Origin: Gemmatimonadota bacterium
GTDB lineage: Bacteria > Gemmatimonadota > Gemmatimonadetes > Gemmatimonadales > GWC2-71-9
Length of the DNA: 64,000 nucleotides
Direction of reading: 5' to 3'
NCBI GenBank assembly: GCA_036679605.1
Contig: JAZDCZ010000327.1
Coordinates: 1-64,000, forward strand
Part shown: positions 58,714-62,167 of the stretch, piece by piece
Numbering within the stretch: the stretch's first letter is position 1
Layout of the letters: every line of letters begins with the position of its first letter
Translations under genes and position numbers: made by a program
The notes under the pieces: model-generated
What the model was told of the DNA's origin: nothing
What the model saw: the letters and a program-made list of their open reading frames with translations, nothing else
Databases searched by the model: none

Positions 58714-58932
58714 GGTGGGGGTCTGGTGCAGTTTACCGACGTTGTTGCCGTAAGTTGGTGTAAAACAACATCATAGGAGAATCGAGCAGTACGGCGCTGC
58801 CTGACCGACGGTGGCGAATAGTAACACTGTTGCGGGGATGCTACATGGGAGTGGGGATGTGAAATGTGAAAGGTGAAAGAATACGGACGACACCGGCTGA
58901 AACCGGACGCACGGAATCCCGTATGCGAACAC

Positions 58933-59529
58933 ATGAGCCGCAATACCGATCTCTCCACCGGCTCCGACCGCGACATCGTGCGCTCCGCACGCGCGGGCCA
59001 CGAAGACGCGTACGCCGAGCTGGTGCGCCGCTACCGCCGCCGCGTGCTCGAGTCCATCTATCGCATCGTCCGCCACGAGGAGCGCACGAACGACCTCGCA
59101 CAAGAAACCTTCGTCAAGGCGTTCAACGCGCTCGACCGCTACCATTCCGAGCGCCACTTCCTACCCTGGATCCGCACCATCGCCACCAACTCGGCTTCCG
59201 ACTATGTCCGCCGCAAACGCCCGGACCGCGCCGATTCCCCCTGGGCCGTGACCCCCCGGCGCATCGATGCTGAGCGGATCTTCGTACCCGGCCCCACGGA
59301 CACCCCGGCGGCGGAACGAGAGAGATGTGACGCCGCTGCCGCGGTTCGCCGGGCCCTGAAACGGCTCAAACCCAAGTACCGCCGCTGCGTCACGTTGCGC
59401 TACGTCCACAACCGCTCGTACGAGGAGATCGCGCGGCTGATGGGCGTGCCCGTGGGCACGGTCGGCACCTACCTCCACCGCGCGCTCAAAGACCTGAGGC
59501 GGATAATCGAGAACAGCCCAACCCCGTAA
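58933..59529 (+). CDS. ECF sigma-70 factor
   Basis: AYAELVRRY, DLAQETFVKAF, FLPWIRTIATN, SYEEIARLMGVPVGTVGTYLHRA. Confidence 0.92.
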   Translation: MSRNTDLSTGSDRDIVRSARAGHEDAYAELVRRYRRRVLESIYRIVRHEERTNDLAQETFVKAFNALDRYHSERHFLPWIRTIATNSASDYVRRKRPDRADSPWAVTPRRIDAERIFVPGPTDTPAAERERCDAAAAVRRALKRLKPKYRRCVTLRYVHNRSYEEIARLMGVPVGTVGTYLHRALKDLRRIIENSPTP

Positions 59530-59766
59530 CCGCCTACCCCTGCCGCCGCAGGATCTCGTAACTCCCTGCCCCGTAGTGACTTCCAAGAACCCCGCTGAAA
59601 GAAAATCGGGCCCTTCCCGTATACCAGAATAGGGACCAGTGCGACGCCGCGCCCCGGCCGAGAGGTCGGGACCGAGCACTGCTGGTCACGTCCCAGACGC
59701 GAAAGGAGACTCCATGGCCGCCCACATCCTCCAAACCCCGCGGAGAGCCGACGCAGGCTACGACGA

Positions 59767-59795
59767 CGTAAGTCAATGTCACTACTTGACTTACG
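59767..59795. promoter_or_regulatory. Palindrome with perfect 10-bp arms
   Basis: CGTAAGTCAA-tgtcactac-TTGACTTACG immediately before the 21-bp array. Confidence 0.6.
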
Positions 59796-59799
59796 GCGT

Positions 59800-60345
59800 T
59801 TCAAGCACCGTTCCGGATGGCTCAAACCGAATTTCGATCGGGTCAAACCGAAATCCGGGTGCCGCGATCGAACATCCGGGTGCGGCGACGGAAGTTCCGG
59901 ATGTAGCGGTCCGAGTTCCCTGTACGGCGAACCCAACTTCGCCCGTTCCAATCGGAACTCCGGGCCTGCCGATCAGAGTGCCGGATGCGCCGATCCGAGT
60001 TTCGGGCGTACCGATCCGAGTTTCGGTCGTACCGATCCGAGTTTCGGTCGTACCGATCCGAGTTTCGGGCGTACCGATCCGAGTTTCGGGCGTGCCGATC
60101 CGAGTTCCGGGTACGCCGGCGCGAGTTCCGGGCGTGCCGATCCGAGTTCCGGGTACGCCGGCGCGAGTTCCGGGCGTGCCGATCCAAAACGCGGCCACCG
60201 TAATCCGACTTCCGGACCTGCCAAGCCAAACTGCGGGCGTGGCGCCCGGAATTGCCGGCGGGCCGATCGGAATTCCCGGCGCGCCACGCCGAGTTGCGAC
60301 CGACGCTTCCGGAATTCGGTTCGACCTGTCCGGAGTTCGGCGAAA
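59800..60345. repeat. Tandem array of 21-bp repeats (about 25 units; conserved core 59990-60178)
   Basis: CCGATCCGAGTTTCGG(G/T)CGT(A/G) x5, then CCGATCCGAGTTCCGGGTACG and CCGGCGCGAGTTCCGGGCGTG alternating x2. Degenerate units keep the 21-bp phase on both sides. Confidence 0.9.
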
Positions 60346-60386
60346 CCTCATTTCACCACCCTTTCACCCGTACCAGGAGGTGCATT

Positions 60387-60995
60387 ATGGCACGCTTCCC
60401 AGAAACAGAGCCCGACATCGCGGCGCTCGCGATGGTCTTGATCCAAGGACTCAGAAACACGCCGGAGCTGTTCCCGGCACCGCCCGTGCCGGCAGACCCG
60501 CTCCAGGCCAGCCTCGATGAGTACAACGAGGCGAGGACCGGCGCGGTCGCGGCGGAGTCGGCAGCCCGCGATCAGGTGGCCGCCAAGAACGCGGCGCTGG
60601 AGCGCCTCGCCAACCACATGCGGCTCGACTTCAAGTACGCAGAGATCGCCGCTAAGGACGCCCCCGAGCACTTGGCAAAGCTCGGCTGGGGGGCGCGCCG
60701 CGACCCCCGCGGTCTCGAGGCCCCGGGCATCATCCGCGACCTGGGGGTCAAATCCCAGGGCGACGGCTGGGTGCTACTCGATTGGAAGGCCCCGACCAGC
60801 GGAGGCGCCGCGGCGGTGTATCACATCGAGCGCCGCCGGCGCGATGGCGGCGAGTGGGGGCAGGTCGCCCACGCGATCGCCACCGAGGACTTGCTGACCG
60901 GACACGAACCCGGTGTCGAGTGGGAATTCCGCGCCTACGCCGAGAACAAGGCCGGCGTGGGTGAGCGGAGCACCGTGGTTACGGTCGAGTTGTAA
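60387..60995 (+). CDS. Fibronectin type III domain protein with a helical N-terminal half and no signal peptide
   Basis: AGGAGG RBS. Ala-rich helical region, then APG..DL....GDGWVLLDWKAP..GG....YHIERR..W...PGVEWEFRAYAENKAGVG. Confidence 0.82.
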   Translation: MARFPETEPDIAALAMVLIQGLRNTPELFPAPPVPADPLQASLDEYNEARTGAVAAESAARDQVAAKNAALERLANHMRLDFKYAEIAAKDAPEHLAKLGWGARRDPRGLEAPGIIRDLGVKSQGDGWVLLDWKAPTSGGAAAVYHIERRRRDGGEWGQVAHAIATEDLLTGHEPGVEWEFRAYAENKAGVGERSTVVTVEL

Positions 60996-61006
60996 CGGCG
61001 GGTAGC

Positions 61007-61075
61007 CGGTTAGGCGGTTGGTGCGGGCCGGTTGAGCTGTCAAGTCGCCGGGTCACCCGTCCAACCGCCTAACCG
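61007..61075. repeat. 15-bp perfect inverted repeat (hairpin or terminator)
   Basis: CGGTTAGGCGGTTGG, a 39-nt spacer, then CCAACCGCCTAACCG, just after the FN3 gene. Confidence 0.7.
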
Positions 61076-61307
61076 CTCAACCGCCTGATCGCTCACGGCC
61101 CGGTTGCGAACGCGAGTGTGTGGAGCCCCAGGCTCGCGCCTGGTCAGCCCTTTCACTCTTCACCTTTTACTCCGCTACTCCCCACTCCCCCACGTACCGA
61201 GGCTGTTTGCCACGCCATGCGCTCAAGTGGTACCAGTTTCTGTGACCTACCACATTACGCTAGTGCGTGCAGTACTCTTGCCCAATCCGTACAGCCGAGG
61301 TGAGCTT

Positions 61308-61856
61308 ATGGGTATGGCCGCTCCAATCTATTACTCGGCCGAACTGGTCCGTGCGATGCCTGACGACGGGAAGCGTTACGAGACCGTCCACGGGGAGTTG
61401 TTGGTGACACCAGCCCCCCGCATACCCCATCAGGAAGTCGTCCTGGGACTCGCCGCCGATCTTCGAGGATATCTCAAGGAATACCGCGTCGGATCTGTGC
61501 TAATCTCACCCGCCGACATTTCGTGGGGGACCGGCGTTCTGGTGCAACCCGACGTGTTCGTGGCCGACCGCAACGAGGTCAGGACCAGCGAATGGGAGAA
61601 CGTCCAGACCTTACTGCTGGCTATCGAGGTCCTGAGCCCGAGCACGGCTCGCTACGACCGCTTCACCAAACGGCGGCTCTATCAGGAAGTGGGAGTACCG
61701 CACTATTGGATCGTGGATCCCGACCATCGGCTCGTCGAGGTGTGGACTCCAGACGACACGTTCCCGACGGTTGAGCGCGAGCGGGTTACCTGGGCCCCGC
61801 GAGGCGCCGCGAAGCCGTTCACACTGCCATTGGCCGAGTTATTCGAGGATACGTGA
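61308..61856 (+). CDS. Uma2-family (PD-(D/E)XK-like) endonuclease
   Basis: MPDDGKRYE..HGEL..PAP..HQ, VQPDVFV, IEVLSPST..DRFTKRRLY...GVPHYWIVDP. Confidence 0.9.
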   Translation: MGMAAPIYYSAELVRAMPDDGKRYETVHGELLVTPAPRIPHQEVVLGLAADLRGYLKEYRVGSVLISPADISWGTGVLVQPDVFVADRNEVRTSEWENVQTLLLAIEVLSPSTARYDRFTKRRLYQEVGVPHYWIVDPDHRLVEVWTPDDTFPTVERERVTWAPRGAAKPFTLPLAELFEDT

Positions 61857-62167
61857 GCCTCGCAGGTCGGGGAGTCTCCAGGCATTCCGTGTCAATGGAG
61901 TTGGGATCAATTCCGGCTCAGCGCAGCGTGCCGGAGTGTCCGGAGCACGCGTCGGTGAGCGGCGGGGCTACTTGGGACGTCCGGCCCGTGCGAGCGAACC
62001 GCAGCGTGCAGAGGATCACTGCCGGCATGCGTAGCGACGGGAGCCCCGGGGATTCATGAGCACCTTTTCGAGCCACTACCAGGCTGGCGCCTGGGATTAG
62101 CCTTTTCACTTCTCCTTCACCGGTATACATATTGCCCCTGCGCTAGTTCACATATATTGGCAACTAA

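Follow-up and report, generated by a model that had tools for sequence, protein, structure and literature searches.

A helically phased DNA lattice with a phase-locked cap and a helical-FN3 protein gene form a conserved unit and a putative control module in Gemmatimonadota and other phyla

Iteron origins, such as those of pSC101, R6K gamma, and P1, combine conserved, helically phased direct repeats of approximately 21 to 22 bp with an end site for integration host factor (IHF) and a winged-helix Rep protein. In plasmid centromeres (parC-ParR, tubC-TubR, sopC, and P1 parS with IHF), a repeat lattice is cooperatively coated by a small dimer, often over its own promoter. The p6 protein of phage phi29 is a dimer that acts on a 24-bp repeat at the phage genome ends and reads periodic bendability more than sequence, and ToxIN type III toxin-antitoxin and TIGR-Tas systems have a tandem noncoding array 5' of a small gene, processed RNAs of about 35 to 57 nt, and a nuclease or Nop-domain protein. 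Here we describe a locus in a 64,000-nt stretch of a Gemmatimonadota genome (contig JAZDCZ010000327.1; this whole stretch is called the window, and all unprefixed position numbers refer to it) that is made up of a lattice of 21-bp units, a palindromic site that we call the cap, and a gene for a 202-amino-acid (aa) protein with a helical N-terminal domain and a fibronectin type III (FN3) domain. By analogy, the nearest working model for this core would be an array of the iteron or centromere kind that has an IHF site and is bound by a dimer regulating its own synthesis.

The likeness to iteron origins lies in repeats at about two helical turns (508 of 576 spacings between units are exactly 21 bp), an IHF-type end site, and an adjacent gene whose product is the proposed binder and self-repressor. 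Unlike iterons, the units are degenerate palindromes, the gene is of the helical and FN3 type, no Rep, DnaA boxes, or unwinding element were seen (no Rep initiator was present among the 53 upstream neighbors scanned), and the module is found in multiple copies on chromosome-like contigs, with no family match in the plasmid collection. With plasmid centromeres it shares a repeat lattice and a proposed small-dimer coat; in contrast to them, it has no NTPase partner (no ParA, ParM, or TubZ in the shared neighbor clusters or the Pfam-scanned upstream neighbors, the downstream neighbors having been clustered only) and no ribbon-helix-helix or helix-turn-helix fold match. The module falls outside these two families for want of a Rep, of a partition NTPase, and of a recognized DNA-binding fold. 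As in the p6 system, bendability may count, since the module consensus has pyrimidine-purine (YR) steps about every 5 bp, but its repeat is 20 to 22 bp long, chromosomal, capped, and FN3 linked, and no sequence or fold link to p6 was found. The tandem noncoding array directly upstream of one small gene recalls ToxIN and TIGR-Tas, yet there is no structured repeat RNA signature, no ToxN, CptN, or TenpN endoribonuclease (Pfam and PADLOC), and, unlike in CRISPR and TIGR guide arrays, no constant repeat or box motif alternating with unique spacers. At oriC, datA, and DARS2, according to PMC10380432, the spacing of the IHF consensus to neighboring protein boxes matters, and the boxes used are DnaA boxes; the site described here is instead a symmetric 25-mer with some 12 palindromic units beside it, and its binding of IHF is putative. 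No description of the module was found in the literature searched, whose coverage left out most subscription papers and bioRxiv supplements.

In the window, which is counted among the scored loci below, the array is one unbroken 21-bp grid of in-register units that begins at 59800 or 59821, with a lag-21 identity of 0.65 against a window background of 0.275 and peaks at lags of 21, 42, and 63 only; Tandem Repeats Finder picks up the array core alone (59961-60185, 10.7 copies). The array ends 41 nt before the ATG of the FN3 gene. An initial annotation of the locus had listed an extracytoplasmic function (ECF) sigma factor without a recognizable anti-sigma, a palindrome with 10-bp arms, about 25 phased repeats ending approximately 40 nt before a helical and FN3 gene with a strong ribosome-binding sequence (RBS) and no signal peptide, and a 15-bp inverted repeat. 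All of these are present (Table 1): no anti-sigma gene adjoins the sigma in the window, the palindrome arms (59767-59776 and 59786-59795) are 10 bp each with a 9-nt spacer, and, judged by reading the sequence alone, the protein has no hydrophobic leader at its N terminus. The setting that it described, between two divergent glycan operons, needs one correction on the left side, where the neighbor is an outer membrane beta-barrel (TonB-receptor-like) gene that does not belong to glycan synthesis. The exact unit number of the window copy may be off, and the existence of the array is surer than its count, because assembled contigs break inside the identical array core (60019-60156, in the sequencing run that accounts for 98% of the words), and 382 nt of the array are missing from a contig of another study.

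The suggestion that the array and the FN3 gene form a unit is borne out by the homologs. Among 80 loci with the N terminus of the gene and at least 500 nt of upstream sequence (the window included and two duplicates dropped), a 21/42-bp array lies within 800 nt upstream of the gene in 52, compared to 5 of 68 control stretches downstream and 3 of 56 far upstream. Of the remaining periods between 10 and 30, none scores in more than four loci, and the upstream periodicity check that the initial annotation proposed thus returned a conserved 21-bp period. A leave-one-out matrix recovered 49 of the 52 arrays and gained 7 of the 28 array-negative loci, and the matrix trained on these loci found a lattice before 41 of 62 distinct held-out metagenome genes versus 11 of 57 in the held-out downstream control, a count that is probably inflated by tandem paralogs with an array downstream. 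Arrays of 11 to 13 units account for 55 of 101 (not de-duplicated). By record title, array-bearing loci belong to Gemmatimonadota, Planctomycetota, Hydrogenedentota, Thermodesulfobacteriota, Zixiibacteriota, Chloroflexota, Nitrospirota, and Pseudomonadota, labels that may include misbinned short contigs of metagenome-assembled genomes. The unit sequences diverge between loci, with variation across all 21 columns and a within-array conservation of 0.55 to 0.79, and dyad symmetry is found at p<0.05 in 37 of 48 arrays. The pooled unit consensus, S n C R W W S S A A G | C T T S S W W Y G n, with the bar at the dyad, has YR steps every 5 to 6 bp.

The palindrome belongs to this unit as well. A TAA-N19-TTA site stands beside 23 of the 52 arrays, compared to 3 of 52 controls and counts of 1 to 6 for other spacer lengths, and the 22 caps that can be placed on the 21-bp grid are locked to it: 8 of 8 5' sites are at phase +2 or +3, and 14 of 14 3' sites are at the mirror position, phase 17 to 19. 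The distance to the nearest unit is 39 to 103 bp, with one case of 248 bp. Held-out caps behave in the same way (3 of 3 5' sites at phase 2 to 4 and 13 of 14 3' sites at 18 to 19; 16 of 17 overall), the cap set that was chosen by phase having been kept out of the phase statistic. The phase rule holds in both main clades, in which related loci are non-independent, and orphan arrays of the host genome, which lay outside the training set, follow it (contig C113, phase 19; contig C275, phase 3). Nine of the 14 3' caps are centered 18 to 19 nt before the ATG and overlap the ribosome-binding sequence.

These two orphan arrays (L268, G000:C113:2549-2895; L269, G000:C275:6750-7050) have the window's unit type and a phased cap but lack an FN3 gene; a gene with a weak AbiEi match follows one of them, and the other is flanked by an AbiEi/AbiEii pair and by a Uma2 gene. 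The window's protein could act on them in trans as their reader.

The repeat period goes with the protein subfamily. One genome (G412) contains arrays with mean spacings of 20.1, 20.6 to 20.75, 21.0, and 22 bp, each before a different protein subfamily, and the same pairings recur in three further genomes (G555, G537, and G541). Because one genome holds four periods, neither a shared host factor nor the DNA helix alone can set the period, and the cognate protein is the likely, and the simplest, source of array spacing. The 22-bp arrays precede a distant 214-aa subfamily with a homologous N-terminal domain (hhalign probability, 96%), and by eye their unit still has an 18-bp core, but its spacer is 4 nt long and not 3 nt. 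Across loci, the distance between array matrices follows FN3 distance (partial rho, 0.43; permutation p, 0.002), the value for N-terminal distance being -0.12, with kinship uncorrected in both.

In the AlphaFold model, the 202-aa protein has helices at residues 8 to 24, 36 to 88, and 94 to 97: two helices with a Pro-rich loop between them, the second of 53 residues, are followed by the FN3 domain. This domain is recognized both by sequence profile (PF00041, E 2.6e-7) and by its beta-sandwich fold, and the closest folds are titin and twitchin domains (twitchin Fn31: Z 15.9, rmsd 1.1, 92 residues aligned). The protein is predicted to form an antiparallel homodimer via its long helix. The two-copy prediction scored 0.71, while the best of three controls scored 0.00, and the dimer runs had a contact agreement of at least 79% and a predicted local distance difference test (pLDDT) score of at least 85; in calibration, 20 of 30 solved dimers attained the dimer mark, as did 1 of 23 single chains. 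The predicted contacts describe an antiparallel rod centered near residue 58 with the two FN3 domains at opposite ends, and, being antiparallel, they would give the dimer the same two-fold symmetry as the lattice unit. The linkers are estimated, from contact pairs and helix rise rather than from coordinates, to exit about 65 Å apart, compared to 71 Å for 21 bp. The helix at residues 33 to 86 is free of indels in 253 of 254 sequences, about 20 alignment columns are at least half basic, and conserved basic residues lie at the rod ends and in the FN3 domain.

A single-sequence search returned 194 relatives, nearly all of 201 to 202 aa among the 120 matches listed, and the nearest are from Gemmatimonadota (71 to 77% identity). 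Existing annotations of family members are "hypothetical" or "fibronectin type III" protein only. With the full protein, only fn3-type models match in Pfam. For the N-terminal domain, no Pfam family matched more than 3 of 68 domains, PHROGs gave no family, the best match in a PDB sequence search was a generic coiled coil (E 0.0035), and a wide structural alignment reached at best a Z of 6.3, which is not meaningful for a helical hairpin. The Foldseek comparison that had been suggested for this domain (PDB and viral structures) gave no match at E≤0.001, an ESM Atlas search returned unnamed or fn3 clusters only, and a representative-protein search for relatives was swamped by multi-FN3 proteins and yielded nothing usable. 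Such blank family and fold searches do not show that the N-terminal fold is new. The viral collection holds one family locus, with 47 nt of upstream sequence.

We propose, at a probability of roughly 0.5, that the downstream helical and FN3 protein coats the noncoding two-fold DNA lattice as homodimers, with an IHF-type bend at the cap; for direct binding of the array by its cognate protein, the odds appear to us about even. Homodimers would coat the lattice, likely one per 21 bp, with the FN3 ends of the dimer rod reading it, and a likely IHF-type bend at the cap would fix the start or end of the coat. A filled lattice, commonly of about 12 units, would close the adjacent cap, which in many loci overlaps the ribosome-binding sequence of the gene, and the unit would then be a switch that counts dimers, limits itself, and controls both its own gene and any genes inserted next to it. 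In the lineage of the window, the ECF sigma would likely drive transcription into the unit. The most specific form of this proposal, an FN3 homodimer that polymerizes on its own lattice, with a repeat set by the subfamily (20, 20.6, 21, or 22 bp), a phased IHF-type cap, and a count of about 12 dimers that switches the module and its captured cargo, is put forward tentatively, at somewhat less than even odds.

Several observations weigh against this proposal. An exact cap is confined to the 23 arrays counted above, 21 of the 80 genes are array negative even with the matrix, several paralogs in one genome (G414) have no array, and the two orphan arrays of the host genome have no adjoining FN3 gene. 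The family protein is acidic (median pI of 4.75 over 108 homologs), its N-terminal domain has a net charge of -6, and neither the N-terminal nor the FN3 domain is a known bacterial DNA-binding fold. Since array and gene are inherited together, the match of subfamily and period and the FN3 correlation may partly reflect shared descent, and within the non-Gemmatimonadota clade the N-terminal correlation (0.46) is about as high as that of FN3 (0.41). A helix-length ruler as the origin of the period was considered and found unsupported: the helix is just as long in the 20-bp subfamily, and in the 22-bp subfamily it is 3 residues shorter and comes with a longer linker. Concerning the bend, PMC10380432 gives the IHF consensus as TAAnnnnTTGATW and describes IHF as confined to few phyla, which counts against an IHF reading of the cap. 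The match is partial, with 11 of 23 caps reaching four of six core letters (3.3 expected) and 1 perfect; the window's own cap has three of six. The host genome encodes one HU-like and one IHF-like protein, both scoring below the family cut-offs, which in the case of the IHF-like gene is a further point against the bend; with only one IHF-like gene, the protein would be a homodimer and its site symmetric.

The alternative that fares best, although we consider it unlikely, is that host nucleoid proteins of the HU/IHF type, or another trans factor, are the sole readers of lattice and cap, which would then be a regulatory platform for any gene that follows, with the FN3 protein as its usual regulated cargo. 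The resemblance of the cap to the IHF consensus would fit, as would its genome-wide enrichment (104 TAA[CG]-N17-[CG]TTA sites in the host genome versus 35 to 63 at other spacers), the mostly flexible YR steps of the consensus, the orphan arrays beside AbiEi-type and Uma2 genes, and the acidity of the FN3 protein. However, only 3 of 99 genomic cap-like sites have a lattice, the four periods in one genome each have their own protein subfamily, and the array consensus tracks FN3 divergence. Independently of the arrays, the genome-wide TAA[CG]-N17-[CG]TTA sequence is a candidate motif of the single IHF-like protein (C170:4168-4452).

Acidity and two-fold symmetry of the rod would also fit a decoy pair, in which the rod is a DNA mimic, comparable to Ocr and ArdA, and the array is a DNA sponge for the same host or phage DNA-binding protein, the array sensing that protein and the gene product titrating it. 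Toxin-antitoxin and nuclease genes among the neighbors would suit such a pair, but net charge is not conserved (from -10 to +5 in the N-terminal domains of array-bearing genes), no known-mimic fold is among the structural matches listed, and the full 202-aa protein has no match in PADLOC; we regard this explanation as quite improbable.

Equally doubtful, in our view, is a gene-capture or self-spreading cassette whose lattice and IHF-type cap would be a recombination or insertion platform and whose protein would be an architectural factor. The family is multicopy (12, 10, and 6 matches in three genomes) and patchy (8 of 166 genomes of the host's family), the cap can be on either side of the array, the array sits between two paralogs in 21 loci (four near-duplicate pairs included), and six distinct loci carry unrelated orphan genes beside the array. 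Against this, no recombinase, transposase, or reverse transcriptase was found among the 53 upstream neighbors scanned or the shared neighbor clusters, the cargo borders have no common junction sequence by eye, and the flanking 7-mer repeats occur throughout the genome. An inverted pair at 58847-58879 and 61150-61182 was accordingly rejected as element ends, as it consists of TGAAAGG-type 7-mer runs, of which there are 31 in the genome. A mobile or defense role, which the initial annotation had considered, is still a candidate one, with no mobility enzyme and no PADLOC match found. In the six loci with orphan genes (L074, L078, L083, L085/L104, L090, and L196; all Planctomycetota type), these genes are co-oriented and lie on either side of the array and cap between two FN3 paralogs, which suggests a gene-capture hotspot.

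A role of the array as RNA, either as a repeat antitoxin like those of type III toxin-antitoxin systems or as a protein-bound structured leader, is very unlikely. The array is probably transcribed, lying between a promoter-like motif and an RBS, the window array folds better in sense (z, -7.1) than in antisense (z, -3.4), and real arrays exceed their column shuffles in stability in 35 of 48 cases. In contrast, half-units of the same unit pair no better (0.466) than those of different units (0.467 to 0.483), there is no G-U bias (GT/TG, 658; AC/CA, 709), the sense strand is more stable than the antisense strand in only 23 of 48 arrays, and the real unit order beats unit-order shuffles in 26 of 48. 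Without a within-unit pairing excess, G-U bias, or a preference for strand or order, the array symmetry looks like a property of double-stranded DNA. To be strictly in helical phase with a site at a distance of as much as about 100 bp is likewise a DNA property. Rfam gave three chance-level matches only, and no nuclease domain was found in the protein by Pfam. Of the protein-binding or RNA-structure array that had been suggested, the protein-binding variant is the best reading, while the RNA variant, with neither covariation nor strand bias, is not supported.

That the array encodes a heptad-repeat protein is hardly credible and largely refuted at the family level, for although two forward frames and one reverse frame are open in the window's units and RBS-led open reading frames (ORFs) cross the array in the window (from the ATG at 59714 to 60520) and in L052 and L054, 15 of 52 arrays have stops in all six frames, the mean number of open frames per array is 1.42 (expected, 1.35), leader ORFs of related loci run into the array in lattice frames 0, 1, and 2 with peptides that are unrelated between closest relatives, array-frame translations have no Pfam or NCBIfam match, and the window's ATG matches the start of a deleted amidase; the array is thus no conserved coding sequence, a possibility that the initial annotation had named. 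In a long-array subclade (window 59714-60520, L052, L053, and L054), an ORF that starts upstream stays open through the array in various frames and terminates at the FN3 gene, within it, or in its frame, which may reflect selection for ribosome transit and not for a peptide.

Beyond this core, the ECF sigma is a clade-level accessory of Gemmatimonadota-type loci outside the pan-phylum core. A co-oriented homologous sigma lies upstream in 8 of 36 such loci with at least 1.2 kb of upstream sequence (window included) versus 1 of 61 others; among genome loci it is linked at L033, L057, and L081 only, and metagenome loci raised the linkage. Its ECF identity is given by regions 2 and 4 only. The promoter-like motif before it is a presumed autoregulatory promoter, similar motifs precede the linked sigmas of L136 and L057, and a stretch nearly identical to the second motif follows the sigma in L148. 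With a pattern that was picked after seeing some of the scored sequences, an ECF-type motif within 1 kb was found in sense in 10 of 51 Gemmatimonadota-type loci and in antisense in 2 of these 51; elsewhere, 1 of 81 loci had it. The closest paralog sigma of the host genome (45%) has a similar promoter motif and an adjoining candidate anti-sigma gene. By eye, L139 carries an exact version of the second TAA-N19-TTA site at the same place after the sigma. A scan for sigma-70 promoters and terminators called nothing, the 3' hairpin having no T-tract. Downstream of the gene, inverted repeats of 10 bp or more are present in 17 of 72 cases and in 0 of 64 controls, and the hairpin sequence of the window is not conserved; this hairpin is ordinary and no defining part of the module, from which both it and the sigma, included in the initial annotation, have to be taken out.

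Table 1. Features of the locus in the 64,000-nt window
Feature	Position	Strand	Remarks
ECF sigma ORF	58873-59529	+	Likely start ATG 58933; Sigma70_r2 and r4_2 (Pfam), TIGR02937 (NCBIfam)
ECF-type promoter-like motif GAAAC-N16-CGTAT	58899..58924	+	Directly 5' of the likely ATG of the sigma; regex match
Second, one-mismatch TAA-N19-TTA-like site	59559..59583	.	Exactly 210 bp (10 x 21) from the main cap; just 5' of the second promoter motif
Second ECF-type promoter-like motif	59597..59622	+	Aimed into array and FN3 gene; regex match
RBS and ATG (ATG at 59714), likely deleted-amidase stub	59702..59716	+	Position matches amidase starts in related loci
Cap, palindromic TAA-N19-TTA, center 59781	59767..59795	.	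Phase +2 of the 21-bp grid
Lattice of 25 to 26 noncoding dyad-symmetric 21-bp units	59800..60345	.	Lag identity, stop counts, symmetry tests
RBS AGGAGGT of the FN3 gene	60375..60381	+	Sequence
Helical and FN3 gene, 202 aa	60387..60995	+	fn3 at residues 117-200; helical N-terminal domain
15-bp-arm inverted repeat from 8-mer repeats	61007..61075	+	Arms 61007-61021 and 61061-61075; likely 3'-end hairpin

The fullest layout, seen in L033 and L057, runs from sigma, amidase, membrane coiled-coil gene, and array to FN3 gene, small membrane gene, and Ser/Thr kinase, and parts of it are found in L136 and L137. The RBS and ATG upstream of the window's cap are at the same position as the starts of truncated amidases (L130 and L148) and intact ones (L033 and L057); the window, L130, and L148 appear to have arisen by deletion, with only the amidase start left. 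The amidase resembles endolysins, and for the coiled-coil gene there is a weak match to an Rz-like spanin (E 5e-4). In L033, L039, and L057, the amidase, the transmembrane coiled-coil gene, and a small hydrophobic gene flank the module and are followed by the Ser/Thr kinase, a set that resembles a lysis cassette and is only a lead. In 19 of the 21 loci with a paralog on each side of the array, the upstream paralog is a basic and aromatic variant. These variants form a supported clade in the tree (L073, L082, L094, L100, L104, L109, and L110) with a variable basic and aromatic helix at about residues 17 to 50 and no upstream array of their own in six scoreable members, and they are possible heterodimer partners or specificity subunits.

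Downstream of the module, the window has a Uma2-family nuclease gene (61308-61856) with at least eight close paralogs in the genome, followed by a repeat of about 120 to 150 nt (61913-62045) with at least 16 further genome copies. A genome of the same genus (G060) has the Uma2 gene in the same place and keeps the deacetylase; its contig ends about 350 nt upstream. Elsewhere in the host genome, whose bin has a contamination of 6.3%, a degenerate array with a different unit precedes a truncated family gene coding for the N-terminal 61 aa (G000:C319:1078-1670), and there is a lone FN3 half (G000:C243:474-770); both appear to be decayed module copies. Periodic 21-bp stretches in C227, C429, and C262 were dropped as arrays, being coding Cys-rich 7-residue repeats in large proteins.

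Because toxin-antitoxin, Uma2 nuclease, amidase, and spanin-like genes and surface-glycan operons are among its neighbors, these surroundings point to an accessory role of the module in envelope stress or defense. If the FN3 dimer coats the lattice, this would be an undescribed kind of DNA-protein control module, and one that is widespread, with at least 908 relatives by N-terminal profile and arrays in eight phyla. An exact helical period and a phase-locked cap that are kept while the sequence changes point to a structural protein-DNA code and not to an ordinary operator. Given the consensus, the cap rule, and the cognate pairs, one small protein and a handful of oligonucleotides would be enough to test this. 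Were the FN3 dimer indeed the reader, a DNA-binding role would be added to a fold that is known for adhesion and muscle filaments, and the 20-, 21-, and 22-bp lattices in one genome would be natural orthogonal pairs with a swappable period code, which could serve as a basis for DNA-templated protein arrays.

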